From the NCBI RefSeq assembly GCF_009931435.1, contig NZ_CP043414.1: a DNA stretch of 64,000 bases; one strand, 5' to 3'. Positions 7,935-54,845 of this stretch are shown here, one piece after another; the stretch's first letter is position 1; each line of letters begins with the position of its first letter. The position numbers and the translations under genes are program-made. The notes below the pieces were generated by a model, which was not told the DNA's origin, did not search any database, and saw only the letters and a program-made list of their open reading frames with translations. Origin of the DNA: Escherichia coli. Its GTDB lineage: Bacteria; Pseudomonadota; Gammaproteobacteria; Enterobacterales; Enterobacteriaceae.

Positions 7935-8411
7935 TTAAAGCAGACCGTGTTCCGCAAAGGAGAAAACCTGGTTGCCACCGACTATCAGATGGTCCGGCAC
8001 CCGGATATCCACCAGGGCCAGTGCCTGTACCAGACGTTCGGTGATAAGCCGGTCTGCCTTACTGGGTGTGACTTCACCGGACGGGTGATTGTGTGCCAGC
8101 ACCACGGCAGCGGCATTGTGATACAGGGCGCGTTTAATCACTTCCCGGGGATGGACTTCCGTGCGGTTGATGGTGCCGGTGAAGAGGGTTTCACCGGCAA
8201 TCAGCTGATTCTGGTTGTTCAGATACAGCACCCGGAATTCTTCACGCTCCAGTCCCGCCATGTTCAGAATCAGCCATTCCCGTGCCGCATGCGTGGAGGT
8301 GAAGGCCACGCCGGGTTCATGAAGATGGCGGTCCAGGGTTTTCAGGGCCCGCTGAATGAGGCTGCGCTCACCGGGCGTCATTTCTCCGGGCAGAAAGGAA
8401 ATCTGTTGCAT
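7935..8411 (-). CDS. RadC-like JAB-domain protein (YeeS/YkfG/YfjY family)
   Basis: 158 aa with the JAMM-like motif AAAVVLAHNHPSGEVTPSKAD. Canonical position in CP4-type elements. Confidence 0.9.
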   Translation of the reverse strand: MQQISFLPGEMTPGERSLIQRALKTLDRHLHEPGVAFTSTHAAREWLILNMAGLEREEFRVLYLNNQNQLIAGETLFTGTINRTEVHPREVIKRALYHNAAAVVLAHNHPSGEVTPSKADRLITERLVQALALVDIRVPDHLIVGGNQVFSFAEHGLL

Positions 8412-19618: not shown

Positions 19619-20053
19619 ATGAGTAAGAAGAAAATTCCTTTTGAAAATGAAGAGTTCATTACTTACCGGGCATTACTTCTGAGTATTGACTTTGTTAAAA
19701 AACTGGTTATAGAAATGTCTGATGAAGATTTAAATAAGGTTAAGGAAAACTTTGACATAGCTATTCAGCAACGTAATGAGCGAAAGGAAAATATGAAAGC
19801 TATCAAATCACTCATGGATGAACATGGTATATCTCTGGAAGATTTTTATTGTGAATTTGGCAAAAAATCACAGGCAGGCAGAAAAAGTGTGTCAGGAAGG
19901 CATAAATACGAGTATGACGATAACGGTAAAAGAATGTACTGGAATGGACAAGGACGTCGGCCTAAGGCCATAGCAGAGGCTATAAAAGCCGGAGGTTCTC
20001 TTGATGATTTTCTTATATCTCAGGAAGTATCATCTGGTCCTGATTATGAATAA
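19619..20053 (+). CDS. H-NS-family nucleoid-associated protein (island-borne paralogue)
   Basis: 144 aa. Coiled-coil N-terminus. The C-terminal YWNGQGRRPKAIAEAIKAGGSLDDFLI corresponds to H-NS [28 protein letters not shown]. Confidence 0.85.
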   Translation: MSKKKIPFENEEFITYRALLLSIDFVKKLVIEMSDEDLNKVKENFDIAIQQRNERKENMKAIKSLMDEHGISLEDFYCEFGKKSQAGRKSVSGRHKYEYDDNGKRMYWNGQGRRPKAIAEAIKAGGSLDDFLISQEVSSGPDYE

Positions 20054-20469
20054 CAGCAATATATATTTTGATCTGTATTAATATCAAGAAATATATAGTA
20101 AACACTTCTCCGGAGTTGATATATTATCGGCAGGGAATGAAAATGCCTGACTTCATGCTAATATATGGCAATAAAGATAAATGAGTTATACTGTAGAGTT
20201 ATGAAATAACGATAGTGATAAGAGCCAGTCAGCGAGACTGATTGTTTTATCTGTACTGGCAGCAGGCAGTTTACCATGGCTTACTGCTTCAGCTTCTGAA
20301 TCTGTGTTGATGATATTTATCTGTTTATAAGGCAAGGCTTGTCTCTGTGAGTTGGTAATCTTTATCCCGGGATAGCTTTTCTCTGTATTTTTAGTATAGC
20401 CAGTAATCGATTACTCCTGTATGCGCAAAAATATAGCAACTCATCCATGGTAAACATGTCAGCTTTTAC

Positions 20470-21042
20470 CTACATATAGATAAATTCATATTTCACGATA
20501 TACGACCCAATTTTATTAACACGAGCTGTTACCCATACACCTGTCATCCCCTGTTTATGGTGACTGCGCGGGAACTCTTTATTTGTACAAAGTTGTATCC
20601 ATCTGGAAGTGTTTTGATCTTTCAACCAGAGTCCCGCTTCACAATGTCCATACTTTCCTCTTGATGGTCCCGGAAAAACAACATCATATTCAGATTCATA
20701 GCTAATAACCTTATCCGGAAAAAGATAAACACAGACATCGTAACAGTTCAGACTCAGTATAAATCCAAGACAAAATCCCCCCGTGAATGCATTTAATAAA
20801 TACTTTAATGTTCTGTTAAAGGTGCGGATATAAAATGCATAAATAAAAGAAAGAGAACCGGTGGTTATACCGGTGCAAAAATATGTTGTCCATTCAGGTA
20901 CCGTATTTTGTAAAACAGTATAATGAGATATGGCGGATGCCCACAACATATACCAGCACAAACCACCTGCAATAAGATATGTTATTGCTGTGGAAAACCA
21001 TTTCCTGTATTTATTTTCAGGGTGATTGTTTTTGCCCATCAA
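20470..21042 (-). CDS. hypothetical membrane protein (about 3 TM helices plus a C-terminal soluble domain)
   Basis: 190-aa ORF starting 97 bp downstream of the dGTPase-family gene on the same strand. Hydrophobic segments at about aa 17-37, 52-72 and 84-104. No family recognised. Confidence 0.5.
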   Translation of the reverse strand: MMGKNNHPENKYRKWFSTAITYLIAGGLCWYMLWASAISHYTVLQNTVPEWTTYFCTGITTGSLSFIYAFYIRTFNRTLKYLLNAFTGGFCLGFILSLNCYDVCVYLFPDKVISYESEYDVVFPGPSRGKYGHCEAGLWLKDQNTSRWIQLCTNKEFPRSHHKQGMTGVWVTARVNKIGSYIVKYEFIYM

Positions 21043-21139
21043 CGCATTTCCAGAATATTTAAAAATAACCTGTCACCGAAACAGAATAAAGGCGCAATAA
21101 CCATAGCGGGAAAATATGCGCCTCTGGTAATCGACAGTG

Positions 21140-22393
21140 TTACTTCAGACAGTGAGTTTCCCATTCCTTGACTGCAAATGTATCCATCATACCTGAAATA
21201 TAGTCAACCACTGCTCGTTTTTTGCTGATTTTAAATATATAGGAATCTGGTTGGGGTAAGGTGAATTTAAGTTCAGGAGGCAGAAATTTATAATTCTCTC
21301 CTTCATTGTAAAAGTCATATAAATCCCTGATTATTTTATTTCCCCTGAACTCATAGGTGAGGATATTACGTTTTCGCATGATGACTTTAAAGAGAAGTTT
21401 TTTGAGCCCTTCGGATAACGCATTCAGTTTCCCGAATCCCAGTTCCTGAAAACCATTCAGGTTCGTTACTACAGAAATATCTGCAACGAGGCGATTGACA
21501 ATATTTGAAGTTAACTCCTTGCGGAATATGATGGCAAATTCTTCTGAGGTTTTCAGTAAGTTAGCCTGAAAAGCGGTGTTTCTCGACTGAGTAACGATTT
21601 CCCTGAACTGTTCCCTCGCTCCCCGGAATTCGTCAGAAATCTGAAACTCATATTCAATATCTTCAATCGTGACCATGTTCCTGCTAAGGGCATCTTCCAG
21701 GTCATGCGCGGCATAGGCAATCTCATCCGCGAGATCCATTATCTGCGCATCAATCGTTTTCTCTCCGGGATTCAGATCGAGCTGATTTTCAGCAAGCAGG
21801 TTAATGTAAAAATAGTAATCATCATCATAAATGAACTTGCCGGCAGTAGCTGCAGCGCGGGGGATGGGATACTTAACAACCGAAAGTAAACTACGGTGAG
21901 TCAGATTTAATCCGTTGCAGTATGAAAATTTCTTCTCCAGTTTTCTCAGGATACGTAGCGCCTGTGCATTGCCTTCATAGCCGCCGATTTCTTCAGACAG
22001 TTCATTAAGTAGTTTTTCACCGGAATGACCGAAAGGAGGATTTCCGATGTCATGCGCCAGAGCTGCCAGTTCAACCACCACCGGGTTAACCAGTTTGAGG
22101 TCTGACGCGATACTTCGGGCGATCTGAGCAACCTCAAGACTGTGCGTTAATCTGTTTCTGTTGAATTTTTCAGGATCAATTTCAAAAAGTTGCATCTTTC
22201 CCTGCAGCCTGCGAAATGATGATGAATACAGAATACGCGCATAATCCCGTTGATAATTATCCCGGCTTCTTGTTTCACCATCGGGGGACGGGTGCTCTCT
22301 GGTATCAGCAAGCGCACTGATAAGTTTTTGTTCCTGCTCTTGCGCAAATTCTTTTAATTCATTGCAGTACATATTTCTTCCTTTCTGGAGCAT
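21140..22393 (-). CDS. dGTPase-family HD-domain dNTP triphosphohydrolase (Dgt-like, short form)
   Basis: 417 aa. YQRDYARILYSSSFRRLQGKMQLF...NRLTHSLEVAQIARSIA...LAALAHDIGNPPFGHSGE is the dGTP triphosphohydrolase family signature (H..HD metal site). Confidence 0.9.
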   Translation of the reverse strand: MLQKGRNMYCNELKEFAQEQEQKLISALADTREHPSPDGETRSRDNYQRDYARILYSSSFRRLQGKMQLFEIDPEKFNRNRLTHSLEVAQIARSIASDLKLVNPVVVELAALAHDIGNPPFGHSGEKLLNELSEEIGGYEGNAQALRILRKLEKKFSYCNGLNLTHRSLLSVVKYPIPRAAATAGKFIYDDDYYFYINLLAENQLDLNPGEKTIDAQIMDLADEIAYAAHDLEDALSRNMVTIEDIEYEFQISDEFRGAREQFREIVTQSRNTAFQANLLKTSEEFAIIFRKELTSNIVNRLVADISVVTNLNGFQELGFGKLNALSEGLKKLLFKVIMRKRNILTYEFRGNKIIRDLYDFYNEGENYKFLPPELKFTLPQPDSYIFKISKKRAVVDYISGMMDTFAVKEWETHCLK

Positions 22394-22522
22394 GTTACCA
22401 AATCAGAATACCGGATGAACAAAACTGGTGGCTACATCCTGTAGGGATTATGTATTAGTAAGCTCTGGCCATTAGTGCCATTTCAGGTTATGTGATCCTA
22501 CTCACGTAATATGGACACAGGC

Positions 22523-23389
22523 CTAAGTGAGGTTCTGGTTTTCAAATTGTTCCGGACTGAGGCCGCCACACCAACTGTGCCGCCGCCACCGATTGTAATC
22601 ACATTCGATATAATTAAACACCGTTGCCCGCATTATTTCCCGGCTGATAAAGTGTTCTCCATGGATACATTCCACTTTCAGCGAATGAAAGAAGCTTTCC
22701 ACGCAGGCATTATCGTAGCAGCAACCTTTTGCGCTCATACTTCCACGCAGATTATGCCGCTTCAGTTGCGCCTGATAATCTGCTGAACAGTACTGGCCTC
22801 CACGGTCCGTGTGAACGATAACGTTCCGGGGCCTCTTACGCCGCCACAGCGCCATCTGCAGGGCATCGCAGGCCAGTTGCGCCGTCATGCGTGGCGACAT
22901 TGACCAGCCAATAACGGCACGTGACCACAGGTCAATGACCACTGCCAGATACAGCCAGCCTTCATCTGTACGTAAGTACGTGATGTCTCCTGCCCACTTC
23001 TGGTTCGGGCCACTGGCGTAAAAATCCTGCTCCAACAGATTTTCTGACACAGGCAGGCCGTGTGCGCGGTAGCTGACCGGGCTGAACTTCCGGGAGGCCT
23101 TTGCCCTCAGTCCCTGACGGAGCAGGCTTGCCGCCACGGTTTTTACGTTAAAGGGGTAACCCTGAGCACGCAGTTCATCCGTCAGGCGTGGGGCACCGTA
23201 ACGCTGTTTTGACCGGGTAAAAGCCGCGAGGACAACGCTGTCGCAGTGTTGGCGGAACTGCTGACGCGTGCTTATCCTTGTCCGCCGCTGACACCACGTA
23301 TACCAGCCGCTGCGGGCCACCCGGAGCACGCGGCACATTGCTTTGATGCTGAACTCAGCCTGATGTTTTTCAATAAAGACATACTTCAT
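22523..23389 (-). CDS. insF: IS3 transposase OrfB (InsF), DDE domain
   Basis: 288 aa, [32 protein letters not shown]..., near-identical to IS3 InsF as recalled. Confidence 0.95.
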
Positions 23390-23851: not shown

Positions 23852-24832
23852 ATGACTCTTTTGGTAACGGCTGAGTGTGTTGACGATCTGATAAACGATG
23901 TTCATCAAGCTATCCTAGCGGATGGACTCAGTAACGATCCTACAAAAGGATCAACTCTAGAGATTCTTGGTGCCTATCTTGTCCTTACCGACCCCCGCCG
24001 AAGAATAAGTAGAACAGAATCCCGAGGAAAACTAATTAGTTGCTTAGGTGAATTTCTGTGGTATCTCTCAGCTCAGAACGATCTTGAGTTTATAAAACAC
24101 TTCATACCACGTTACGCTGAATCCGCTGAGTCAGATGGGAAAATACATGGTGGTTACGGGCCACGGTTGTTTAATATGCGTGGTTTATATAATCAGCTAA
24201 AAAATGTCATCAACCTTTTGCAGGAGAAAAAACCTACCAGACGTGCAGTAATACAGCTTTTCGATGCCTCAGACTTGGTGCCCTCAAAAACTGAACAGCG
24301 AGAATACGTAGATATTCCTTGTACAATATCTATGCAGTTTATTGTCAGATGTGAAGAGCTGCATCTATTTGTTTGTATGCGTTCTAACGATGCCTTTATG
24401 GGGCTGCCTCATGATGTATTTGCGTTCACGATGCTACAGGAATTAGTTGCCCGCTTGATAGGATGCGAATTGGGTCACTATCATCACTTTGTATCCAGCC
24501 TACATCTCTATAAAAATGATTTAGAAAAAGTGAAGGCTCTTCAGAAAGAGGGGTTCATGAGCACCCTACCAGTCATGGGATCGATGCCTGAAATGCATTC
24601 CTTAGATGATATCTTACCCCTGCTTGAGGCAGAAAAAGCTCTTCGAGAGAATAAGGAATTTGATATTGACACTACTTCCTTGAATGACTACTGGAAGGAT
24701 TTATTGCGTATATTAAAAATCCACTTTTTGTTACGTTCACATACACCCAACCACAAAGGACTAGCCTTCCAAGAGTTGGCTGCAATGAAAAATCAGGAAT
24801 ATCGGTTTATTTTTGAAGGAAGACTACAATGA
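23852..24832 (+). CDS. thymidylate-synthase-fold pyrimidine-C5 transferase homologue (Asp at the ThyA Asn177 position)
   Basis: 326 aa. Ungapped match to the ThyA core as recalled: IPCTISMQF/APCHAFFQF, MRSNDAFMGLPHDVFAF/QRSCDVFLGLPFNIASY, LHLYKN/THLYSN, GEFLWYL/HELLWFL. Confidence 0.8.
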   Translation: MTLLVTAECVDDLINDVHQAILADGLSNDPTKGSTLEILGAYLVLTDPRRRISRTESRGKLISCLGEFLWYLSAQNDLEFIKHFIPRYAESAESDGKIHGGYGPRLFNMRGLYNQLKNVINLLQEKKPTRRAVIQLFDASDLVPSKTEQREYVDIPCTISMQFIVRCEELHLFVCMRSNDAFMGLPHDVFAFTMLQELVARLIGCELGHYHHFVSSLHLYKNDLEKVKALQKEGFMSTLPVMGSMPEMHSLDDILPLLEAEKALRENKEFDIDTTSLNDYWKDLLRILKIHFLLRSHTPNHKGLAFQELAAMKNQEYRFIFEGRLQ

Positions 24833-25773
24833 AAAGACATAATCAAATCAGTCAGCTGGTTAGTAATTTGCAAAATTTTAGCCGCAATGAACACAACCTA
24901 AATGGTCTAAGTTCTCCTGCCTGCTTTGATGTTTTAGCCTGTCAGATTATCGACAGTATACGTCGTATACGCTATGTGGAAACTCTTGCATTACGGACCG
25001 ATTATATGACTCCGTTACGAAAAGAGCCGAATTCTGATGTTTTTGATCCTCTCCGCGCTGCCTGCCTTTATCTTCGTGACAACAATTACGATGAAGCCTG
25101 CTGGCTGGTTTTCCTTGCCACACATTTCGGCAAGAGTAACAAAACCGGCTGGATTTTGTGTCGAGATATATACAGTGGACTCGGTACACAAACGTGGACA
25201 TGGGATACGATAACTGATGACTTTGCTGCTTTTGAACAATGGTTCGCCAGCGTCTCTGATGAGTTGACAGCTAACAGTAGCCTAAGACAATATGGTAACC
25301 ATCGGAAATATGAAACGAAGAAATATCACTCTCGTCGTTCAATACCTGCGGTTTTTCGCTCTTACATCGGATTCATTGGTGCTACACACAGTCATGAGGC
25401 TAGGTTTGCAGAGGCCAAGAGCTTTTCATCTTCACCAGAATCTTTATTCGAACTATTGTATTCAGGGCTAAATGCCGTGATCTCATTTGGACGAACCGCA
25501 AAATTTGATTACCTAACTATGCTCAAGAAAACGGGACTTCTGGATGTAGAGCCGGGTCATGCTTTTCTGAATGGAGCAACCGGGCCCCTTCAAGGAAGCC
25601 GGCTACTTTTCAGCAATAGCCGGACTGCTGGTGACACAATAGACGTATTGAATGAAAAACTAGCTGACCTTGCGGCAATTATTCCTGCACCCTACTTGAG
25701 AATGCAGGTTATTGAAGATGCGTTGTGCAACTGGCAGAAATCACCTGACCGTTATGTCTATTTCGGCGGCTGA
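24829..25773 (+). CDS. hypothetical protein translationally coupled to the TS-fold gene
   Basis: 314-aa ORF whose ATG overlaps the upstream stop (ATGA at 24829-24832). No motif assignable by eye. Confidence 0.6.
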   Translation: MKRHNQISQLVSNLQNFSRNEHNLNGLSSPACFDVLACQIIDSIRRIRYVETLALRTDYMTPLRKEPNSDVFDPLRAACLYLRDNNYDEACWLVFLATHFGKSNKTGWILCRDIYSGLGTQTWTWDTITDDFAAFEQWFASVSDELTANSSLRQYGNHRKYETKKYHSRRSIPAVFRSYIGFIGATHSHEARFAEAKSFSSSPESLFELLYSGLNAVISFGRTAKFDYLTMLKKTGLLDVEPGHAFLNGATGPLQGSRLLFSNSRTAGDTIDVLNEKLADLAAIIPAPYLRMQVIEDALCNWQKSPDRYVYFGG

Positions 25774-25775
25774 TA

Positions 25776-26858
25776 TCAGACGATATCTTCTTTACGGAAT
25801 CTCACTTTAAACCGATTAAGGTGAGAAAAAGGTATATTACCTTCATGCTGCAAATATCCCAGTACGATCCCTTTGGATACCCCCATTTTCCTAGCTAACC
25901 GGATGATCTCTTTCCAATGCCGGACACCATAGCGACTAAGTTGCTGCCGGTATTCTTCTGGGATAAGAACATCAACGGCAAATTTATCTGCTTCCTTTTC
26001 CTCTTCCGACGAAAGACTATCTTTACCTTCTACGCGAACTCGGACAGCTTCATGCAAGATGAGATGCCCAATCTCATGAAACAGCGTAAACCAAAAATGG
26101 TCATCGGTCAGATAACGGAAACTCATGACTAGGGTTGCGCGATCTGGTGTAAAAAAGCAGGTAGCACCACTTGCCCGACATCCCTTTGGCGTTGGCAACA
26201 CAACGAGAGAAACTCCAGCAGTGGCGAGAAGGTCGCGAATGTAAGGGATAAAAATCCTCATGTCGGGTTCATTTGTAGCTTTGCGCAGTTCTGGCAACAA
26301 TGCTATCAGCACCTCTTTATCCCATACAGCACAGTTTTGGTTTGAGGTAAGTTGTGCAGCCCTAGTCAGCCACACCAAATCGGCCATAGGCTCGGTTGCC
26401 AGATTAAGAGATTTACGAAAAGCGACCAAAGGAGCATCTGACTGAATTTTATAAAAAAAATCATTGACGGAATTTATTCCGAAAAACGATAGGCAGTGCT
26501 GGAATTTACTTTCCCGAGTTGTAGTTTTGGGGATCCAACCAAACTCCATCATATCACGTACAGGCAATGATTCGAGCCAATCATTATTCACTTTCTCGAG
26601 GTATCCAATTTGCTGGCGATAAGCGACTTCGCGCTTGATCCAGAAGTCTGTCGATACGTTGAATAACTCCTCAAGCTTACAAGCCAGAGACTCATTGAGT
26701 CGGATTTTTCCTTCAAGAAGTTGCTGACCCCGGATAAGAGACAATCCAATCCTCTTACTCAGTTCTTCACCAGAAAGCCCATGTTCATCCATTAGATCTA
26801 TAATTGTATCACCGGGTGGAGATACCCAGTCAGGCTGGAAGTCCTGCGTAACTATCAT
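25776..26858 (-). CDS. XRE-type HTH fused to an ImmA/IrrE-family zinc metallopeptidase
   Basis: 360 aa. N-terminal HTH (LSGEELSKRIGLSLIRGQQLLEG) and C-terminal HExxH (LFHEIGHLILHE). Confidence 0.8.
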   Translation of the reverse strand: MIVTQDFQPDWVSPPGDTIIDLMDEHGLSGEELSKRIGLSLIRGQQLLEGKIRLNESLACKLEELFNVSTDFWIKREVAYRQQIGYLEKVNNDWLESLPVRDMMEFGWIPKTTTRESKFQHCLSFFGINSVNDFFYKIQSDAPLVAFRKSLNLATEPMADLVWLTRAAQLTSNQNCAVWDKEVLIALLPELRKATNEPDMRIFIPYIRDLLATAGVSLVVLPTPKGCRASGATCFFTPDRATLVMSFRYLTDDHFWFTLFHEIGHLILHEAVRVRVEGKDSLSSEEEKEADKFAVDVLIPEEYRQQLSRYGVRHWKEIIRLARKMGVSKGIVLGYLQHEGNIPFSHLNRFKVRFRKEDIV

Positions 26859-27181
26859 TTCACGTCACCTATGAACACTAACCGTATCCGGCTAACTCGG
26901 GACCAGTTAATTGTATTATCTTGATTTTTGGGCTGAACTGTATTCCCACAGACAAATCCCATTTTTACATCACCGAGAATGGTAATTGTAATACACTCTT
27001 CCCCATCCTCAAAGCAGACCTCCGGCGAACCTACGGGCAACAGTAAAATGTTGTCTGTCACGGAAAGATCGGAAAGTCGCGAGCGTAGTCTTGATGCCAC
27101 TTTGTCACCAAAGATCTCATTTGCCTCATGCATACTCTCGCAAATAGTCCTTAACTTCTTGCTTTGAAAGGTAATGAACAA
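26855..27181 (-). CDS. small putative toxin (HigB/killer-protein-like N-terminus) upstream of the HTH-ImmA gene
   Basis: 108-aa ORF overlapping the downstream gene by 4 bp. MFITFQSKKLRTICES resembles the start of HigB-type killer proteins, but the C-terminal family motif is not evident. Confidence 0.4.
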   Translation of the reverse strand: MFITFQSKKLRTICESMHEANEIFGDKVASRLRSRLSDLSVTDNILLLPVGSPEVCFEDGEECITITILGDVKMGFVCGNTVQPKNQDNTINWSRVSRIRLVFIGDVK

Positions 27182-27324
27182 AATTATCCACTTTTATTTT
27201 TCTTGGTTGCTACGTTTATAGCAAACTCAACGCTCATTCACAAAATGAGATGTAGCGAATTAATGGACTCTGCACATATTAAATGTTAATGATGGACTTA
27301 AAATCACGGATTCGTAAGGGAAAC

Positions 27325-27588
27325 ATGAAAGGTAAACATCAAGACACTAAAGCCCTGTCTGACGTGCTAGCGGAAATGCAACGGCAGGATGCCAAATGGG
27401 GGGCAGACCGTAATCAAGATCCTTTTATCTGGGGAGCGATTCTCGGAGAAGAGGTGGGAGAATTTCATCAGGCTGTCCTCCATGATCGTTTTGGTGGTAA
27501 AGCAGCCGGTACCAGTAGGGAGGAAGCAGTACAAATTGCTGCTGTTGCACTGCAAATCATCGAATATTATGATCGCGTAATAGATTGA
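27325..27588 (+). CDS. MazG-like all-alpha NTP pyrophosphohydrolase (small form)
   Basis: ATG at 27325 preceded by AAGGGA. KWG....W..ILGEEVGEFHQAV...EEAVQIAAVALQIIEY fits the MazG-type EExxE metal motif and helical pattern. Confidence 0.6.
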   Translation: MKGKHQDTKALSDVLAEMQRQDAKWGADRNQDPFIWGAILGEEVGEFHQAVLHDRFGGKAAGTSREEAVQIAAVALQIIEYYDRVID

Positions 27589-28710: not shown

Positions 28711-29012
28711 GATTAATGCATTGAAACAAAATTCATTAATGATGAACTTGGAGAAAAGCTCCATCGTTTTATTGGCTCAAAAAACATATCCCATAGATGA
28801 TCAGCCATACCTTCATTGGTTAGCAAGGTATCCTGTGAGTAGCCATGGCTGAAGATGCCCATTGATGGGCGAAAACCAAGGATCTGACCGTTAGAGCAGT
28901 TATGTCGTTAAACACATCACCACCATATGCCATCCGGCTCACTTCGTCGGCCAAATTAGTGTGATATTCTTTCCAGAAATGCTGTTGTATCCACGACATA
29001 AGGCGATGATTG

Positions 29013-32000
29013 ATGGAGCAGTCTCTCAATTTTGAAATGTTGCGCAGCCAGTGGCCGGAACTGGCTGAACTCGCGTGTATGGCGGAACGCTATGTTCACT
29101 CCGATCCGGAAAGTTGTCTGGTCAAGCTGCGCAACTACACTGAATTGATGGTGCGCTGGTTGTATCGTCAGGAGCGGTTGCCGGAAGGTATTAAGGCTAA
29201 TCTTTACGATTTAATGAATGCTGATGTCTTTACCAGCATGATGCCGGAAGCCATCATCATGAAAATGGATGCGCTGCGTATCCATGGCAACCGTGCCGCG
29301 CACGGCGGACGTATCAAAGCTAAAGATACTTACTGGCTGCTCAAAGAAGCGTATTTGTTGGGAATTTGGCTGTATGTTCGCTACGCCCACGGTAATGTTG
29401 ATGACTGCCCCAAATTTACACTCCCTCCATTAACACAATCTTCAGGTCGTGCAGATGAAAAACGTCTGGAAGATGCAATCAGGGCTCAGGATGAAAGCCG
29501 TGAGCGCGAACTGGCGCTGCAACGCGCACTACAGCAAGAACAGGAAAAGGCCGAACACCTCACTCAACGCCTGAATGAAGCCAGAGCGCGTAACCAGCAT
29601 GTTGCCGATATTCTCTCTATTGATGAAGCGGAAACCCGCCGTCGCCTGATTGACTCTCGCCTGCTTGCTGCTGACTGGAATGTAGGCGAAGGCCTTAAAA
29701 ATACCGATCAGGTTACGCAGGAACATCCCGTTAAAGAACAACCTACCGCGACCGGAGACGGTTATGCGGACTATGTCTTGTGGGATGAGGCACACAAACC
29801 GCTGGCGGTGGTGGAAGCAAAAAAAACCAGCGTCAATGCCGAGCAAGGACGAATTCAGGCCCGGCTGTATGCAGACTGGCTGGAAAAAGAATACGGCCAG
29901 CGTCCGATCATCTTCTACACCAACGGCTATGATATCTGGCTGTGGGATGACCATAAAACTCATGGTTATCCCCCGCGTCGGGTGTTTGGCTTCTACAGCA
30001 AGGAAAGCCTGCAATATCTTATTCAACAGCGTGAAACCCGTCTTCCGCTGAACAGTGTGCCGTACGTAAAAGATAACGAAGGTAAGGCCGTTGCCGGACG
30101 TTTGTACCAGCTTGAAACCATTGCCCGTGTCAGCGAGCGGTTTACCAACAAATACCGGCAATCGCTAATTGTTCAGGCTACGGGTACAGGCAAAACCCGC
30201 GTGGCAATAGCGCTAAGCAAACTGATGATTGATGCCCGCTGGGTAAAACGCGTCCTGTTTCTTTGCGACCGCAAGGAACTACGTAAACAGGCGGCGAATG
30301 CCTTTAATCAATTCACCAATGAGCCGCTGTATGTGGTCGGGAAATCGAAAAAAGCAGACAGGCAGAATGCTAGGATCTACATCGCCACCTATCCTGGTAT
30401 GATGAAAATCATGGACCATTTCGATGTTGGTTATTTCGATTTGATCATCGCCGATGAATCCCATCGCTCTATCTACAACGTTTACGGCGATCTGTTTAAG
30501 TATTTTGATGCCCTCCAGATTGGCCTGACGGCCACGCCGATTGACATGGTGAGTAAAACCACTTTCGGCCTGTTTGGTTGTGAAGGACGTATTCCTACCG
30601 CCAACTACAGCCTGGAAGATGCCATCGCCGATAACAATCTGGTTCCCTATGAGGTTGTCACGCACACCACAGAATTCCTGCGCGAAGGCATCAAACGGGA
30701 GAAATTAAGCGACGCACAAATCCGCGAGCTGGAAGAACAAGGCATAGATCCCAATACGCTGGAGTTTGATGGCAAGGCGCTGGATGAGGCGATCTACAAC
30801 AAAGACACCAACCGCTATATCCTGCGTAACCTGATGGAAAATGGCCTGAAAGATCGGGACGGCCAGTTGCCAGGTAAAACCATCATTTTCGCCCGTAACC
30901 ACAAACACGCGCTGCTGTTGAATGAATTATTCGACGATATGTACCCGCAGTTTGCCGGGCGCTTCTGCCAGGTCATCGACAATTACGATCCCCGCGCCGA
31001 GCAACTGATTGATGATTTTAAAGGGCTGGATGAAAGCACCAACAAAGAGCTGACCATCGCTATCTCCGTTGACATGCTCGATACCGGTATTGATGTCCCG
31101 GAAATTGTGAATCTGGTCTTTGCCAAACCGGTCAAATCAAAAGTGAAGTTCTGGCAGATGATTGGCCGTGGTACGCGCCTCTGTCCGGGGTTGTACGGTT
31201 ACGACGATAACGGCAAACCTCTGGATAAACAGAAATTCCGCATTTTCGATCACTGGGGCAATTTTGAGTATCACGAACTGCATACCGAAGAGGCCGAAGT
31301 CACAGCGACAAAATCGCTTGCACAAAAACGCTTCGAAGCGTGGGTTATGCTGGGGGCCGCTGCGCAACGTAAATTCGACAAACAGGCGGTGGATTTAGTT
31401 GCTCACCAGCTACGCGAGCAAATCAATGCACTGGATGAAAAGTCGATTGCCGTCCAGGAAAAGTGGCATCAAAAAGCGCAGTACAGCGATGAAAAAGTGC
31501 TGCGCCAGCTTTCCCCGAAAACACAGCAGGATTTGCTATCTGTCCTGGCCCCGCTGATGCAGTGGCTGGACGTGCGCGGGCAAAGCGACGCTATGCGCTT
31601 TGATATGGATATTCTGGCGGCGCAAACTGCCCGTTATACCAACCCGGAAGAGCTGGATGTGCTCTGGCCGGTCATCGTCGAAAAAGTGGAGCGCCTGCCG
31701 CCGCATTTGGCGCAAGTCCAACAGCAAGGACCGCGGATCAATCAGCTTCGTGATTTAGGCTGGTGGAAGCAGGCCAGCCTGGAAGAGCTGGAAGATATCC
31801 GCATTCATCTGCGCGGCATCATGCACCTGATGGAAAAAGACGCGACGCCGAAATTTGGTTCGATACAGGTGGATATTACCGAAGATGCGAACCTGATTCA
31901 GACGGAAAACCGCAAAACCAACATCCGCTCGATTGACTTCAAACTCTATCGCCAGCAGGTGCAGGGAGCGCTGGAGCCGCTGTTCCAGCAAAATCCGGTG

Positions 32001-32426
32001 CTGAAGAAAATCCGCAACGGCGAGCCTGTGACGCAAAGCGAGCTGGATGAACTGGCTAAACTGGTGCTGATCCAGAACCCTAACGTTGATATCCGGGCAC
32101 TGAAAGAGTTCTACCCGCAGGCGACCGCCAGCCTGGATAAACTATTGCGTACCATCATCGGGATGGACAGCGACGCGGTGGAAGTGCGCTTTGCTCAGTT
32201 CGCCGCTGATAACAGCCTGACCAGCCAGCAATTGCGCTTCCTGTCATTGCTGAAAAACCACATTCGCGATTACGGCACCATTGAAATGCGGCAGCTCTTT
32301 GAACAGCCTTTTACGCATATCCACAACGAAGGCGTTACCGGTGTGTTCCCTGATATAGAGCAGATCGCCCGCCTACAAAAGATAGTCGAAGAGCTGGGTG
32401 TTGTGACCGACGCAGCAACGGTATAA
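29013..32426 (+). CDS. hsdR: type I restriction enzyme R subunit (HsdR) with a DUF4145-like N-terminal domain
   Basis: ATG at 29013 (the ORF track starts at TTG 29010). PD-(D/E)xK GYADYVLWDE...VVEAKK. SF2 helicase motifs QATGTGKT and DESH. EcoEI-type C-terminal domain. Confidence 0.9.
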   Translation: MEQSLNFEMLRSQWPELAELACMAERYVHSDPESCLVKLRNYTELMVRWLYRQERLPEGIKANLYDLMNADVFTSMMPEAIIMKMDALRIHGNRAAHGGRIKAKDTYWLLKEAYLLGIWLYVRYAHGNVDDCPKFTLPPLTQSSGRADEKRLEDAIRAQDESRERELALQRALQQEQEKAEHLTQRLNEARARNQHVADILSIDEAETRRRLIDSRLLAADWNVGEGLKNTDQVTQEHPVKEQPTATGDGYADYVLWDEAHKPLAVVEAKKTSVNAEQGRIQARLYADWLEKEYGQRPIIFYTNGYDIWLWDDHKTHGYPPRRVFGFYSKESLQYLIQQRETRLPLNSVPYVKDNEGKAVAGRLYQLETIARVSERFTNKYRQSLIVQATGTGKTRVAIALSKLMIDARWVKRVLFLCDRKELRKQAANAFNQFTNEPLYVVGKSKKADRQNARIYIATYPGMMKIMDHFDVGYFDLIIADESHRSIYNVYGDLFKYFDALQIGLTATPIDMVSKTTFGLFGCEGRIPTANYSLEDAIADNNLVPYEVVTHTTEFLREGIKREKLSDAQIRELEEQGIDPNTLEFDGKALDEAIYNKDTNRYILRNLMENGLKDRDGQLPGKTIIFARNHKHALLLNELFDDMYPQFAGRFCQVIDNYDPRAEQLIDDFKGLDESTNKELTIAISVDMLDTGIDVPEIVNLVFAKPVKSKVKFWQMIGRGTRLCPGLYGYDDNGKPLDKQKFRIFDHWGNFEYHELHTEEAEVTATKSLAQKRFEAWVMLGAAAQRKFDKQAVDLVAHQLREQINALDEKSIAVQEKWHQKAQYSDEKVLRQLSPKTQQDLLSVLAPLMQWLDVRGQSDAMRFDMDILAAQTARYTNPEELDVLWPVIVEKVERLPPHLAQVQQQGPRINQLRDLGWWKQASLEELEDIRIHLRGIMHLMEKDATPKFGSIQVDITEDANLIQTENRKTNIRSIDFKLYRQQVQGALEPLFQQNPVLKKIRNGEPVTQSELDELAKLVLIQNPNVDIRALKEFYPQATASLDKLLRTIIGMDSDAVEVRFAQFAADNSLTSQQLRFLSLLKNHIRDYGTIEMRQLFEQPFTHIHNEGVTGVFPDIEQIARLQKIVEELGVVTDAATV

Positions 32427-32438
32427 TACGCACATGAC

Positions 32439-32465
32439 AAGCCCCGGCAGCGGGGCTTTTGTATT
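32439..32465 (+). terminator. rho-independent terminator after hsdR
   Basis: aaGCCCCGgcagCGGGGCtttt: GC-rich 6-8 bp stem, 4-nt loop and a T-run, 13 bp after the hsdR stop. Confidence 0.7.
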
Positions 32466-32489
32466 TAAAACAGGATATAAAAGCTAACA

Positions 32490-34124
32490 ATGATCACTGG
32501 TGACTTAAAAAGTAAAATCGACGGCCTGTGGGAAGATTTCTGGGTGGGTGGTATCACCAACCCGCTGACCGTAATCGAACAGATCACCTATCTAATGTAT
32601 TCCCGGATGCTGGATACTCAGGAACAACGCGACGAGAAGCGTAAACAAATCGCGGGTATTGATTTTAAACCGCGTTTTGCACCAGAACAGCAGGAGTTCC
32701 GTTTCAGTCACTATAGCAATCTTGGCTCGGATGAGATGATGGAAGTGGTGCGCGATGGTGTATTCCAGCATTTTCGTCAGCTCGGCCAGGCTGATGCGTC
32801 GAAGGTAACGCTGCTGGGCAACTTTATGAAAGATGCCCGTCTGGAGATTGTTAAGCCTTCATTGCTGACCAAAGCGGTTGAGGTGATCAAAAACCTGCCA
32901 TTGGATCGCGGCGACACCAAAGGCGACCTTTACGAATACCTGTTAAGCAAGCTGACCACTGCCGGAATCAACGGCCAGTTTCGCACACCGCGCCACATTA
33001 TCCGCACGATGGTTGAAATGATGGAGCCGAACCCCGCCCGCGGCGAGACGATTTGCGATCCGGCCTGCGGCACCGGTGGCTTTCTGGCAACCAGCTATGA
33101 ATATCTACTGGAGAAGTACAGCTCGCTGGAATCCATTCATACCGAGATTGGCACCAACGAACGTGGTGAGCTGGAAGAGCAAAAAATCTTTACCGGCGAT
33201 CTGTTGACCCCGTGGCGTAACCATGTGGATAACAATATGTTCCACGGTTACGACTTTGACACCACAATGTTACGTATCGCCGCCATGAACCTGATTATGC
33301 ACGGCGTGGAAGCGCCGGATATCCACTATCAGGACACCATGAGCCAGAGCTTCAGCACAAACTTCCCGCAGGCCAGTAAAAACGCTTTCAACCTGATTCT
33401 GGCAAACCCGCCGTTTACCGGTTCACTGGACGAAGAAGATATCGACTCCACGCTGTCGGCAATGGTGAAAACCAAAAAAACCGAACTACTGTTCCTGGCG
33501 CGTATTCTGCAAATGCTGAAAGTGGGCGGGCGCAGTGCCACTATCGTGCCGCAGGGCGTGCTGTTTGGCTCCAGTAAGGCGCACCAGTCACTTCGCAAAA
33601 CGCTGGTGGAAGATAACCAACTGGAAGCGGTGATCAACCTGCCTTCCGGCGTATTTAAACCTTACGCTGGCGTGGCGACGGCGATCCTGATCTTTACCAA
33701 AGGCGGTCAGACGGACGAGGTCTGGTTCTACGATCTGCAAAATGATGGCTACAGCCTGGATGACAAGCGTAACCCAATTAAAGACAACGACCTGCCGCAT
33801 CTGCTGGCAAGCTGGAAGCATTACCGTACTTTACGCGGGCTGCCGGTTGATAACTTTATGGGTGAGAAATTAGCCTCGTTGCTTAAACAGCAGCACCCGG
33901 AAGGGATTGATGTTGGCGTTGATTTTAAAGATCGCACGCAGGCGGCGTTTGTAGTTCCAAAAGAAGATATTGCTGCGCAGAAATACGATCTCTCTATTAA
34001 TCGTTATAACGAAGTGGTGTATCAGGCGGAGGAGTATGAAGATCCGAAGGTGATACTGAAACGATTAAAAGATCTGGAAAAAGAGATTCTGGCGGATCTG
34101 GATGAGCTGGAGGGGATGCTGTGA
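32490..34124 (+). CDS. hsdM: type I R-M N6-adenine DNA methyltransferase (HsdM)
   Basis: 544 aa. AdoMet motif DPACGTGGF and catalytic NPPF ([10 protein letters not shown]). Confidence 0.9.
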
Positions 34125-35287
34125 GTTGTCGTTATTTAAAAATTGAGGATTTTTGTAGCACCGGTAGCGGTGGAACACCCAGTAGGTCAAAGCCTGAGTA
34201 TTATGAGGGGGGAGATATCCCTTGGATTAAATCAGGAGACCTTAAAGATTCAAAAATTTATGAAGCAAATGAGTACATTACAGCCGCAGGGCTAGAAAAT
34301 AGCAGCGCGAAAATAGTTGAGAAAGACTCAATCTTAATAGCAATGTATGGAGCCACTGTTGGTCGCTTAGCAATTTTAGGAATTAATGCAGCCACGAATC
34401 AAGCTATTTGCAATATCAGGCCAGATACGACAATTGCTGATATGAAGTATCTCTATTACTTCTTGAAGAGCAAGTTCAGCTATTTTGTCGAAAATGCGGT
34501 TGGTGGGGCTCAACCTAATATTAGCCAAGGATTGATTAAGTCATTAGAAGTTCCCCTACCTTCTTTAGATGAACAAAAGCGTATCGCAGATATTCTTGAT
34601 AAAGCTGCTGGTGTATGCCAAAAACGCGAGCAAGCTATCAAACTGGCTGATGATTTTTTGCGGGCTAAGTTTCTAGAGATGTTTGGAACTCCTGCAAACA
34701 ACATACATCGTTTCCCGAAAGGAACGATTCGCGACTTGGTTGATTCAGTAAATTATGGAACTTCAGCAAAAGCCTCTATTGATTCTGGTGAATATCCTAT
34801 ATTACGGATGGGTAATATAACATATCAAGGTAGGTGGGATTTTACAGATTTAAAATATATTGATCTCAGTGTAAAAGAAAAGGATAAATATTTGGTTAAA
34901 GAAGGCGATCTTCTTTTCAATCGTACTAACAGTAAGGAACTTGTTGGTAAAACAGCTGTGTATGAAGAAGACAGGCCTATGGCATTTGCTGGATATTTAA
35001 TCCGCGTTAGACCTAATTCTATCGGAAATAACTACTATATTTCAGGGTATCTTAATTCCATCCATGGCAAAATCACATTGATGAATATGTGTAAAAGTAT
35101 TGTTGGCATGGCTAATATTAATGCACAGGAATTGCAGAATATAGAGATATTAATCCCACCTAAGCATCTACAAGATGAGTATGAGATTATTTATAAAAAA
35201 ATAAAAAAAGGACTAAGCATTTATGATAAAAGCGCAATGCAACTTCAACTTTTAGCATCAAACCTATCGAATAAATATTTCATGTAA
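34121..35287 (+). CDS. hsdS: type I R-M specificity subunit (HsdS), two target-recognition domains
   Basis: 388 aa. GTG start overlapping the hsdM stop (GTGA). Conserved central and C-terminal helices (LPSLDEQKRIADILD..., IPPKHLQDEY). Much more AT-rich than hsdR and hsdM. Confidence 0.85.
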   Translation: MSCRYLKIEDFCSTGSGGTPSRSKPEYYEGGDIPWIKSGDLKDSKIYEANEYITAAGLENSSAKIVEKDSILIAMYGATVGRLAILGINAATNQAICNIRPDTTIADMKYLYYFLKSKFSYFVENAVGGAQPNISQGLIKSLEVPLPSLDEQKRIADILDKAAGVCQKREQAIKLADDFLRAKFLEMFGTPANNIHRFPKGTIRDLVDSVNYGTSAKASIDSGEYPILRMGNITYQGRWDFTDLKYIDLSVKEKDKYLVKEGDLLFNRTNSKELVGKTAVYEEDRPMAFAGYLIRVRPNSIGNNYYISGYLNSIHGKITLMNMCKSIVGMANINAQELQNIEILIPPKHLQDEYEIIYKKIKKGLSIYDKSAMQLQLLASNLSNKYFM

Positions 35288-35295
35288 GGTTCATT

Positions 35296-36918
35296 ATGAA
35301 ATTAACTAAACTTGTACTTGAAAATTTCAGATCTGTTAGAGAGCGGCAGGAAATTGATTTTGCACCTGTAACATTACTATTGGGGCCAAACAGCGCGGGC
35401 AAGACTACTATTTTAATTGCATTATTTTATCTTCAACAAATATTAGACCGTGAGCAGTGTGATCCTATATATTTAGAAGCTATGGGGAACAGGCGCATAG
35501 ATGGATTTAGATCTCTAGTCCATAATGGGGATCTGAATAATGTAATTACTATTGGTATCGGTTTCGATCCTGAACAAACAATAGGTGTAGAATATAAAAC
35601 ATATTTAGAAGAACTTGGTGATATTTTCGATATTCATTTTATAAAAATGAAAGACATTGCAGATGAAACTGAAAAGGTTTATGTAGAATTTAAAATCGCA
35701 TGGTCACAATTGCACAGAGCAGCATATATAAAGAACTATGCTGTTTCTATAAATAATGAATTTATTGGAGAGCTAAGTAATGATGAGTATACTAAATCAT
35801 CTTTAGTAAATAGATTGAACTTTACTCATCCGTTGCTTCTTCCTATTGATTATAATTTATGGCTTGAATCTATTGATAAGGAAGGATTAGATACGATTGC
35901 CAGTGAATTTGAAATATCTTTAAATGACTTAATTCCTGGCTTAGAACGTAATAAAAGTGGTGCAACAGAGCGAGTAAAAACTGTTGATTATATATTTGAA
36001 GAAGATAAAGAAAAACCAATGTTTCCTGTTTTTTTAAAGACGAAAATTGGTGCGTTACCTCAACTGGGAAGAACTGTTGATACAAATTTGAAAGTTTTTG
36101 ATATATCCGAGCCAGTTGAGTATTTTAATCGAGATATAATCACCAGAGTGCTAACGCAAGTTTTTACTTCTCCGTTAGATAAATTAAATAATTATTTAAA
36201 GGCTAGCGTATCTATTGGACCGTTAAGAATTATACCTGATTCTTCATTTACGCCAAATCCTTATCCAGAACAAAATGGATGGTTTGATGGTACATCAGCA
36301 TGGGATAAGCTGTGTTTATCTCAACAAAATGATAGTGATTTGATTAAAAAAGTAAGTGATTGGTTTTCCAATAGAGATAAACTAAACACTAATTATAATA
36401 TATTTAGTGGAGGAGAATTTGATATAAAAACCTCCCCTCAACTTTTAGGTCTGAAAGATAATGTTTACTTCTGTAAAATAGATTCAAGCCAAATGTTATT
36501 TCCAAATCAAGTCGGTGTCGGATTAACTCAGATAGCACCTCTTATTATTGCAGCCAATATAGTTCAGGATGGATTAATTGCTATAGAGCAGCCTGAGCTA
36601 CATATTCATCCCGCTTTACAACTCGCTGTAGGTGATCTGTTTACCCAATATCCCCTTGATGTTAAAAGACCTATGTTTTTAGTCGAAACACATAGTGAGC
36701 ACATTTTGCTTCGAATTTTAAAAAGAATTAGACAAACAACGGACAATGAATTACCTGAATCAAATTACCCAGTAAAACCTGATTTTATATCAGTGATCGT
36801 TTTCGAGGATAATAATGGTTCGACTGTTACTAGGAAAATAGATATTACTGATGATGGTGACTTCAAACAAAAATGGCCCAAAGGTTTCTTCGAAGAAAGA
36901 AGGGGAGAGCTTTTTTAA
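35296..36918 (+). CDS. ABC/AAA_15-21-type ATPase (OLD/PtuA/AriA-like nucleotide-binding architecture)
   Basis: 540 aa, starting 8 bp after hsdS. Walker A GPNSAGKTT, Walker B/D-loop IAIEQPELHIHP, H-loop ETHSEHIL, with a long insertion between the Walker motifs. C-terminal KWPKGFFEERRGELF. Confidence 0.75.
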   Translation: MKLTKLVLENFRSVRERQEIDFAPVTLLLGPNSAGKTTILIALFYLQQILDREQCDPIYLEAMGNRRIDGFRSLVHNGDLNNVITIGIGFDPEQTIGVEYKTYLEELGDIFDIHFIKMKDIADETEKVYVEFKIAWSQLHRAAYIKNYAVSINNEFIGELSNDEYTKSSLVNRLNFTHPLLLPIDYNLWLESIDKEGLDTIASEFEISLNDLIPGLERNKSGATERVKTVDYIFEEDKEKPMFPVFLKTKIGALPQLGRTVDTNLKVFDISEPVEYFNRDIITRVLTQVFTSPLDKLNNYLKASVSIGPLRIIPDSSFTPNPYPEQNGWFDGTSAWDKLCLSQQNDSDLIKKVSDWFSNRDKLNTNYNIFSGGEFDIKTSPQLLGLKDNVYFCKIDSSQMLFPNQVGVGLTQIAPLIIAANIVQDGLIAIEQPELHIHPALQLAVGDLFTQYPLDVKRPMFLVETHSEHILLRILKRIRQTTDNELPESNYPVKPDFISVIVFEDNNGSTVTRKIDITDDGDFKQKWPKGFFEERRGELF

Positions 36919-37814
36919 TGTTCTACGAATGCGCCATTTCACCAGAGGCTTTGTTTGAGATCGCAATTGATCGGAGAAATTATCGTGACTTCATAAAAGG
37001 ATTTTCTACGGGCGGTAACTTTCTCTATAGTGAATTACCAAAGCTGAAGAGAAATAAAAAACAATTGCTTGGGCTATTAAATGCTAATCATAGTGAACTT
37101 CAAAAAAAACGATTAGAGGACCTTATTATTTTTTTGAAAAATAATAAGGTTAGTAGGGTTTATGATTATGTTGGTGACATGTCATGGTCAGATAACATCT
37201 CTGCTGTAAATCGAATTGAACAATTTGATCATGTAGTGAGTTCTACTCCTTGTGATAACCTTGATGTAACTAATATAGATGATTTCTTTGGGTTAAATTA
37301 TGCTCGGCAAAAAATTGTTGCTAGAATTGCTGAGGATATGATATCTATAATCTCACGCTTATTAAAAACATCAGAGCATATTATTATAGTTGACCCATAC
37401 TTTAGTGACAAACAAAGATGGTGGAATGTATTTATTTCATTACTTAGCGTTAGTGCTAATAACTCTTATAAAAAAAATTTAAAGATAGATGTTATATTTG
37501 ATGGGAGTAAAGAAAACTCCCCAACGGTGAATTATTTGGCTAATAAGTTGAACCGCGAAAACCTTGTCTTTCCAGACGATTTTAAATTATCAGTAACATT
37601 TAAGTCTTTAACTTCTCGCGAGGGTAATGAACGTCTGCATAATAGATATGTTCTTTCTAATGTTGCTGGAGTTTGTTTCATGCATGGTTTAGATGAGGGA
37701 GAAGGAACGGATGATGTCTCAATTTTGTCGAAAGAGGGATATAATAAAAGATGGGAACATTACACTACGAATAATGTTTTTGATTTAATAGAAGAGCGTG
37801 AAGTTATATGTTAA
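36918..37814 (+). CDS. hypothetical partner of the ATPase (possible PLD-fold-like C-terminal module)
   Basis: ATG at 36918 overlaps the ATPase stop (TAATG). 298 aa. C-terminal pattern IIIVDPYF ... LHNRYVLSN..G..FMHGLDEG. No Toprim, HNH or HEPN motif seen. Confidence 0.55.
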   Translation: MFYECAISPEALFEIAIDRRNYRDFIKGFSTGGNFLYSELPKLKRNKKQLLGLLNANHSELQKKRLEDLIIFLKNNKVSRVYDYVGDMSWSDNISAVNRIEQFDHVVSSTPCDNLDVTNIDDFFGLNYARQKIVARIAEDMISIISRLLKTSEHIIIVDPYFSDKQRWWNVFISLLSVSANNSYKKNLKIDVIFDGSKENSPTVNYLANKLNRENLVFPDDFKLSVTFKSLTSREGNERLHNRYVLSNVAGVCFMHGLDEGEGTDDVSILSKEGYNKRWEHYTTNNVFDLIEEREVIC

Positions 37815-48641: not shown

Positions 48642-49064
48642 ATGGGACTGATGACACGCATTGCCGATAAAACCGGCGCGCTCGGCAGCGTCGTTTCCGC
48701 GATGGGCTGCGCCGCCTGCTTTCCAGCCCTCGCCAGCTTCGGCGCGGCCATCGGGCTGGGCTTCTTGAGCCAGTACGAGGGACTGTTCATCAGCCGCCTG
48801 CTGCCGCTGTTTGCCGCGCTGGCCTTCCTGGCGAACGCGCTGGGTTGGTTCAGTCATCGGCAATGGCTGCGCAGTCTGCTCGGCATGATCGGCCCGGCCA
48901 TCGTGTTTGCGGCCACGGTCTGGCTGCTCGGCAACTGGTGGACGGCGAACCTGATGTACGTCGGCCTGGCCTTGATGATTGGGGTGTCGATCTGGGACTT
49001 CGTGTCGCCGGCGCATCGCCGTTGCGGACCGGACGGCTGCGAACTCCCCGCCAAGCGCTTGTGA
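48642..49064 (+). CDS. merC: MerC mercury transport membrane protein
   Basis: 140 aa from ATG 48642, MGLMTRIADKTGALGSVVSAMGCAACFPA... Confidence 0.9.
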   Translation: MGLMTRIADKTGALGSVVSAMGCAACFPALASFGAAIGLGFLSQYEGLFISRLLPLFAALAFLANALGWFSHRQWLRSLLGMIGPAIVFAATVWLLGNWWTANLMYVGLALMIGVSIWDFVSPAHRRCGPDGCELPAKRL

Positions 49065-50810
<1,746 letters not shown>

Positions 50811-50827
50811 GGACAAGGAGGTGTGCG

Positions 50828-51190
50828 ATGAGCGCCTACACGGTATCGCAACTGGCCCATAACGCTGGGGTGAGCGTACATATCGTGCGCGACTACCTGG
50901 TGCGCGGCTTGTTACGGCCGGTGGCCTGCACCACGGGCGGCTACGGCGTGTTCGACGATGCGGCCTTGCAACGGCTGTGCTTCGTGCGCGCGGCCTTCGA
51001 GGCGGGTATCGGCCTGGATGCCCTGGCGCGGCTGTGCCGTGCGCTCGACGCAGCGGACGGCGCACAAGCCGCAGCGCAGCTTGCCGTGCTGCGCCAGTTG
51101 GTCGAGCGGCGGCGCGCGGCGTTGGCCCATCTGGACGCGCAACTGGCCTCCATGCCAGCCGAGCGGGCGCACGAGGAGGCATTGCCGTGA
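50828..51190 (+). CDS. merD: MerD co-regulator
   Basis: 121 aa from ATG 50828, [29 protein letters not shown] (MerR-like HTH). Confidence 0.9.
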
Positions 51191-51423
51191 ACGCCCCTGA
51201 CAAACTGCCGCCCGAGACGCGCCAACCCGTTTCCGGCTACCTGTGGGGTGCGCTGGCCGTGTTGACCTGCCCCTGCCATCTGCCGATTCTCGCCGCCGTG
51301 CTGGCCGGGACGACCGCCGGTGCCTTCCTTGGCGAGCATTGGGGTGTTGCCGCGCTCGCGCTGACCGGCTTGTTCGTTCTGGCCGTAACGCGGCTGCTGC
51401 GCGCCTTCCGGGGCGGATCATGA
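51187..51423 (+). CDS. merE: MerE
   Basis: 78 aa. GTG start overlapping the merD stop. [35 protein letters not shown]... Confidence 0.85.
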
Positions 51424-52060: not shown

Positions 52061-52201
52061 TGTCATTTTCAGAAGACGACTGCACCAGTTGATTGGGCGT
52101 AATGGCTGTTGTGCAGCCAGCTCCTGACAGTTCAATATCAGAAGTGATCTGCACCAATCTCGACTATGCTCAATACTCGTGTGCACCAAAGCGAGGTGAG
52201 C

Positions 52202-54744: not shown

Positions 54745-54845
54745 GTTGCATCTAAAATTGACCCACTTAGGGTAAAGATTTGCGTCGAAATTTGACCCAC
54801 GTATGACACTGTTTCCCGTCTGGATATGGCGGGAGAAATCAAGGA

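Follow-up and report, generated by a model that had tools for sequence, protein, structure and literature searches.

Gene organization of the locus

The locus described here occupies positions 20,470–22,393 of a 64,000-nucleotide stretch of Escherichia coli DNA (contig NZ_CP043414.1), hereafter called the window. It contains a gene for a dGTP triphosphohydrolase (dGTPase) that resembles Vdg, an anti-phage dGTPase of Vibrio cholerae, and a gene for a small membrane protein. In the list of open reading frames (ORFs), the dGTPase is an ORF of 417 amino acids (aa) at 21140..22393(-) and the membrane protein an ORF of 190 aa at 20470..21042(-). The gap between the two minus-strand genes is 97 bp (21043..21139). 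The first-pass annotation of this DNA had described the same arrangement, which required small corrections of the start positions. The features of the locus are as follows.

21140..22372, minus strand: Vdg-class stand-alone dGTP triphosphohydrolase, 410 aa (Pfam, PADLOC, TIGR01353, PDB 9VWA, RefSeq WP_000271621.1); the longest ORF extends to 22393 (417 aa).
22373..22485, minus strand: leader and probable promoter region travelling with the dGTPase cassette (blastn homology, Shine-Dalgarno sequence; the promoter itself is putative).
21043..21139, minus strand: spacer of 97 bp, the junction of two unrelated sequence blocks, matching the foreign loci of neither gene.
20470..21042, minus strand: orphan small membrane protein, 189/190 aa, judged an unrelated neighbor (three predicted transmembrane helices, C-terminal beta domain, two invariant cysteines).
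22523..23389, minus strand: IS3-family transposase ORF, frameshifted in RefSeq, marking the cassette edge (ORF list; RefSeq annotation of strain RX24).

In RefSeq, the dGTPase is a [quoted passage not shown] of 410 aa (WP_000271621.1), and the membrane protein is a "hypothetical protein" of 189 aa (WP_021522448.1) that starts one codon later, at an ATG. An AGGAAG Shine-Dalgarno sequence precedes the dGTPase ATG at 22372. The true start of the dGTPase is probably Met8, at window position 22372, giving 410 aa, because RefSeq, the N-termini of Vdg and other homologs in alignment, and the Shine-Dalgarno sequence agree.

The dGTPase had also been regarded as a short form lying in an AT-rich accessory island. 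This was borne out by a GC content of 36–41% across 19–22 kb of the window, compared to about 50% in the flanking E. coli sequence, and by the restriction of the gene to 345 (6%) of 5426 complete E. coli genomes. The 2.2-kb region is 100% identical to E. coli strain RX24, where it belongs to an integrative island adjoining setC/yicL in the chromosome. The RX24 island contains CbtA/YeeU toxin-antitoxin genes, IS3 copies, an H-NS paralogue, a type I restriction-modification (R-M) system, and an integrase remnant.

Sequence class of the dGTPase

The dGTP-triphosphohydrolase signature seen in the first pass was confirmed with protein family models. Pfam HD (1.2e-14) and HD_assoc (5.4e-15) domains are present, and the protein passes the TIGR01353 dGTP_triPase model with 317.3 bits (cutoff 152.35). 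The PADLOC dGTPase model, which is more permissive than the NCBIfam anti-phage models, also matches, at 1.4e-109 over residues 21–413, nearly the whole protein. The protein fell short of every equivalog model, including those for the housekeeping Dgt and for the NCBIfam anti-phage dGTPases; with PRK04926, the housekeeping Dgt model, the score was 155.3 against a cutoff of 405.

The best PDB matches by a wide margin were 9VWA/9VWC (8 chains, 402 aa; E-value 2e-114, query residues 8–414 against Vdg residues 1–390), which are the apo and ligand-bound cryo-electron microscopy structures of Vdg, the 402-aa dGTPase of V. cholerae (PMC13519002). Vdg is octameric, hydrolyzes dGTP, and binds dAMP at an allosteric site (PMC13519002). 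Vdg alone protects E. coli against phiX174, T2, T4, T5, T6, and T7, and this protection needs H114 and the dimer-to-octamer interface (PMC13519002).

The window dGTPase and Vdg share 55.6% identity over 387 aligned residues. The HD residues (H114/D115), the His/Glu dyad (H123/E126), and D223 are conserved, and H114, D115, and D223 (ORF numbering) align with the metal and HD residues of Vdg. All nine named residues that contact dGTP are conserved. Seven of the eight dAMP-site residues are identical and the remaining one, R31, is replaced by Glu with an Arg two residues further on; dAMP binding is predicted here from sequence. In the interface that joins dimers into the octamer, E236, R322, and K323 are identical, K324 is replaced by Arg and H235 by Tyr, and Y400/K402 lie beyond the aligned region.

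Like Vdg (V. cholerae O1; DGT1B_VIBCH; 9VWA, 9VWC, 9VWG), the window dGTPase is encoded by a single gene of similar length (402 vs 410 aa) with homology over the whole length. It differs from Vdg in host and genomic context, and the residues that stack Vdg octamers into 16-mers (C127, N364, C366) are not conserved. The octamer and the phage protection are experimental results for Vdg and predictions for the window protein.

Other dGTPases were more distant. The housekeeping E. coli Dgt (505 aa; PDB 4X9E) is likewise an HD-domain dGTP triphosphohydrolase, but only about 90 N-terminal residues align (E-value 1.9e-21), and it is a core gene. The weak alignment and the low PRK04926 score support the earlier statement that the window gene is not the housekeeping dgt. 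The Clover system (CloA dGTPase and CloB nucleotidyltransferase; PDB 9P8S and others; PMC12265719) also uses an HD-domain dGTPase as an effector in phage defense, and it is the precedent on record for a dGTPase partnered by a regulatory gene (PMC12265719). CloB is a soluble Pol-beta-type nucleotidyltransferase (NTase) that makes p3diT, whereas the window neighbor is a membrane protein without an NTase motif or family match. CloA shows weak similarity over part of the protein (3.4e-25, residues 37–271), and the PDB 9P8W chain (462 aa) matches at 2.6e-48, much more weakly than Vdg. The neighbors of the dGTPase are an H-NS-like gene, the membrane protein, and the IS3 element, with no Pol-beta-type NTase adjoining. 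An orphaned CloA was therefore rejected.

The Sp-dGTPase type (Tal et al.; NF041026) belongs to the same enzyme superfamily, with dGTP depletion proposed to occur on infection, and its members are similarly single genes in defense islands or adjoining type I R-M systems. They are longer than the window protein, at about 455–463 aa. The E. coli dGTPase validated by Tal et al., from strain G177, has 455 aa and a different N-terminus from the window protein, so identity with this enzyme was rejected. The window protein belongs to the dGTP triphosphohydrolase subfamily and, by sequence, to the Vdg class, and falls outside the Sp-dGTPase NCBIfam family, Clover, and the housekeeping Dgt.

Distribution of the dGTPase

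The genomic context was looked up for eight relatives, 66–81% identical, from eight genera.

Proteus: prophage end, adjoining an integrase.
Edwardsiella: within a lambdoid prophage, flanked by its recombination genes and its N/cI region.
Morganella: within a lambdoid prophage, close to Q and lysis genes.
Providencia: adjoining P2-type phage genes (gpD, Ogr).
Klebsiella: with a NACHT protein as neighbor.
Pantoea: with a SIR2 protein as neighbor.
Xenorhabdus: with a Lamassu LmuB-type gene as neighbor.
Cronobacter: with nucleotide-modification genes as neighbors.

All eight foreign relatives lie in prophages or defense islands, and further relatives were found on IMG/VR viral contigs. The gene downstream of the dGTPase differs in nearly every foreign context examined. 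This sparse, mobile, and defense-linked distribution fits a defense gene. Together with the PADLOC match and the anti-phage Vdg as closest structure, it upholds the initial reading of a defense-type dGTPase.

Against this distribution, the possibility has to be weighed that the dGTPase is an enzyme of nucleotide-pool housekeeping or mutation rate that lies in the island by chance. Carriage by 6% of E. coli genomes argues against it, as do relatives in prophages or defense islands in 8/8 genera and the weak resemblance to Dgt (155 vs 405 with PRK04926; about 2e-21 over about 90 residues with 4x9e). The 56%-identical homolog Vdg is experimentally defensive, and the same island holds a type I R-M system and other candidate defense genes. 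However, many bacterial dGTPase homologs have no known defense role, the score is below the NCBIfam anti-phage cutoff, and homologs less than 45% identical to Sp-dGTPase rarely adjoin defense genes (Tal et al.). On balance, a housekeeping role is very improbable.

Two other downstream genes were observed among the relatives. In both Edwardsiella tarda and Xenorhabdus japonica, the dGTPase is followed closely by a convergent DUF4365 gene of 285 aa (loci L043, 6619–7476, and L050, 6484–7341), and the two genes may co-travel as a pair. Separately, in a dGTPase clade of 40–44% identity from metagenomic and viral contigs, a conserved soluble ORF of about 196 aa lies directly downstream on the same strand. 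It is present in 12 of the 15 loci with readable downstream sequence (L060, L061, L063, L066, L067, L068, and L141–L146; for example, L063 4183–4779 and L143 4244–4831) and has no match in Pfam or PADLOC. This ORF may represent a true partner of the dGTPase, as yet undescribed and with no relation to the membrane protein of the window.

The membrane protein

About three transmembrane helices and a soluble C-terminal domain had been proposed for the 190-aa protein. An AlphaFold2 model built with the family alignment (mean predicted local distance difference test score 89.6) places helices at 8–39, 50–72, and 79–107, followed by a seven-strand C-terminal domain at 111–189. A 19-residue hydropathy window gave clear support for helices 1 and 3 only, with helix 2 weaker. 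The proposal therefore stands for the C-terminal domain and two of the helices, and more weakly for helix 2.

The mean number of Lys plus Arg is 4.1 in the N-terminal tail, 1.1 in loop 1, and 2.0 in the 7-residue loop 2. Because of this charge distribution, the C-terminal domain is predicted to be outside, so that the N-terminus would be inside the cell and the C-terminal domain periplasmic. In the C-terminal domain, the cysteines C134 and C152 are invariant, and so is a PGP...G..CE.G motif. The two cysteines are compatible with a periplasmic disulfide.

There are 57 homologue clusters of the protein, all from Enterobacterales, Pseudomonas, and Aeromonas, and none is annotated. No known family passed in Pfam, NCBIfam, PADLOC, or PHROGs. 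The sole sub-threshold match, Voltage_CLC (16 bits vs 24.8), was rejected as a hydrophobic-segment artefact. When all neighboring ORFs in 36 species were clustered, no conserved neighbor of the membrane protein was found. The recurrent neighbors were LysR (12 loci) and LysE (9 loci), which differed in distance and strand from locus to locus, and others were a chemoreceptor (MCP), a solute-binding protein (SBP), and a SulP permease. LysR and LysE were rejected as partners, being generic and variable in distance and strand. Elsewhere, the context of the family, whose members would be small inner-membrane proteins, is that of ordinary chromosomal transport and regulator genes, not defense. As a guess, we favor a small protein of the envelope that has no tie to nucleotide metabolism.

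Small membrane proteins are common as abortive-infection or exclusion effectors. The protein lies in a defense-rich island and has no known family, and it could thus be an independent defense or superinfection-exclusion protein acting in parallel with the dGTPase. This is very unlikely, since its neighbors in 36 other species are transport, regulator, and chemotaxis genes with no phage or defense context, no PADLOC or PHROG match was obtained, and the gene is often truncated in E. coli.

Conservation of the gene pair

Conservation of the pair was assessed from both sides. For the membrane protein, a family-alignment scan with one genome per species yielded 36 loci, and a Pantoea plasmid locus from BLAST made 37. 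By tblastn, a dGTPase was found within 6 kb of the membrane-protein homolog in none of these 37 loci. For the dGTPase, 115 loci (14 exact-protein look-ups, 80 metagenomic, and 21 viral) were searched with tblastn and a family hidden Markov model. The membrane protein was present in only two of the 115, both of them copies of the E. coli island at least 99% identical. Downstream genes were counted only at loci with at least 700 bp of downstream sequence, and the membrane protein was absent downstream of the foreign dGTPase at all 66 of them (0/16 at 60–95% identity, 0/15 at 40–60%, and 0/35 below 40%). The conservation of the gene neighborhood, proposed in the first pass as a check of the pairing, therefore fails on both sides.

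The boundaries of homology were determined with blastn. Homology to the Proteus and Edwardsiella dGTPase loci spans from the stop codon (21137–21140) to 22461–22485, some 90 bp upstream of the start codon. With foreign membrane-protein loci, similarity extends over roughly 20427–21018. The 97-bp spacer had no match in the foreign loci of either gene. Because homology ends at the dGTPase stop and at the ends of the membrane ORF, with a spacer matching neither, the sequence indicates that the dGTPase and the membrane gene are distinct blocks, each with a history of its own.

Among E. coli genomes, 319 had the dGTPase covered to at least 80% and 203 had a full-length membrane gene. About 131 genomes retain the 5' half of the membrane gene, which breaks off after about codon 97, beside an intact dGTPase. 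The truncated gene is joined to a truncated papA/pap regulatory region (window 20470–20747; loci L002 and L003, about 7950–8300). The conjugative IncI NDM-5 plasmid pNDM5_LS003 likewise carries an intact dGTPase with a truncated membrane gene. The membrane gene has thus decayed independently of the dGTPase. Because the truncation is possibly one inherited event, it was treated as supporting evidence and not as 131 independent tests. The E. coli copies of the locus are 95–100% identical, which points to a single origin rather than repeated selection. Adjacency was not conserved in independently diverged lineages, nor were both genes kept intact together.

These data bear on the reading of the locus as a two-gene system of the E. 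coli lineage, in which the membrane protein was recently recruited as a sensor, anchor, or second effector and is co-transcribed with the dGTPase and modulates it. The two genes are on one strand, 97 bp apart, with no terminator-like site between them; they are adjacent in about 200 E. coli genomes, and two-gene dGTPase systems exist (Clover, CloA and CloB). However, the adjacency is absent from the 37 and 66 foreign loci of the two genes, the near-identical E. coli copies indicate one origin, and about 131 genomes retain an intact dGTPase beside a truncated membrane gene. In addition, the close homolog Vdg works alone, and the conserved domain with the two invariant cysteines is predicted to be periplasmic, away from the cytoplasmic enzyme. 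We therefore consider a two-gene system highly unlikely. It is less credible still that, in the E. coli island only, a co-transcribed membrane protein was co-opted as an envelope-stress or phage-entry sensor or as an anchor tuning the dGTPase. Such a two-gene system would be very young, and the sole point in its favor is the missing terminator in the gap. The suggested role as sensor, regulator, or second effector is not supported, as adjacency was found in no examined locus outside E. coli and the gene is truncated in about 131 E. coli genomes with an intact dGTPase. On the same grounds, the alternative offered in the first pass, an unrelated neighbor, was judged right.

Consensus scans found no terminator or promoter in the 97-bp gap and no sigma-70 site in the dGTPase leader stretch 22373..22485. 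The IS3-family transposase at 22523–23389 abuts this leader about 40 bp past the end of the cross-genus homology and could affect dGTPase expression. An H-NS/StpA-family paralogue of 144 aa lies at window 19619–20053, in the AT-rich part of the island, and may act as a xenogeneic silencer of island genes, the dGTPase included.

Other genes of the window

Beyond the IS3 element, at window 23852–27588, a thymidylate-synthase-like gene (326 aa) is translationally coupled to a gene for an aGPT-Pplase clade 3/ADDT protein (314 aa, Pfam 4.8e-90). These are followed by a convergent regulator with helix-turn-helix and M78-peptidase domains (PADLOC PD-Lambda-2_B, 3.3e-30), with a 108-aa ORF upstream of the regulator, and then by a MazG-like gene. 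In the DefensePredictor paper, aGPT-Pplase and MazG are predicted, unvalidated defense domains. The cluster, which is more of a novelty than the dGTPase, looks like a candidate nucleotide or DNA-modification defense cassette. That the thymidylate-synthase-like/aGPT-Pplase3 pair is functionally linked to the dGTPase was considered and rejected, as such genes occur in 0/8 foreign dGTPase contexts.

At window 29010–37814, a type I R-M system is encoded by a 1138-aa HsdR-like DEAD/DEAH helicase gene followed by the M and S subunit genes. After them come genes for an AAA ATPase (540 aa) and a 313-aa hypothetical protein, which may form another two-gene defense module.

The region at window 49000–57000 has 60–68% GC and carries a Tn21-type mercury-resistance, tni and IS1326 module; the high GC content extends to 64000. 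The module recurs with 100% identity in the E. coli 042 and strain 789 chromosomes and on many plasmids.

Discussion

The locus very probably holds a stand-alone, mobile, Vdg-class anti-phage dGTPase and an unrelated orphan membrane neighbor, which were joined once and are linked by descent. By analogy with its homologs, the enzymatic activity, oligomeric state, and phage defense of the window dGTPase would be as follows. The enzyme would hydrolyze dGTP to deoxyguanosine and triphosphate at the metal site of the HD domain, as expected by homology, and the resulting dGTP depletion would starve phage DNA replication. It is probably octameric with an allosteric dAMP site and may be tuned by dAMP. 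It would be constitutively expressed and self-sufficient, with no partner gene needed. The two genes would have met in a single event, in an ancestor of the present E. coli island.

Several points weigh against this explanation. The octamer-interface residue H235 is changed to Tyr and the dAMP-site residue R31 to Glu, and the interface residues Y400/K402 lie outside the alignment. The score with NCBIfam anti-phage NF041026 was 284.7 (cutoff 400), in two separate stretches, and that with NF003701 was 252 (cutoff 383). The E. coli dGTPase that has been tested, from G177 (Tal et al.), is a different protein; no experiment deals with this exact E. coli protein, and a search of the paper library for the RefSeq accessions of both window proteins gave no hit. 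The scan of the 97-bp spacer gave no terminator, so that co-transcription of both genes in E. coli is possible. A single deletion event may also lie behind all the truncated genomes, which then amount to roughly one observation, not about 130.

The dGTPase is a known kind of single-gene defense system, already recognized by standard tools. Vdg-class stand-alone defensive dGTPase is a suitable label for the gene, and the finding matters little beyond annotation. Because the window enzyme is distinct both from Dgt and from the Sp-dGTPase-type enzyme of G177, E. coli strains carry at least two different defensive dGTPase lineages. The pairing with the membrane gene is a lineage-specific accident of island assembly. 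It serves as a caution: where all copies go back to one island, adjacency on the same strand in a defense island does not count as evidence for a functional pair.

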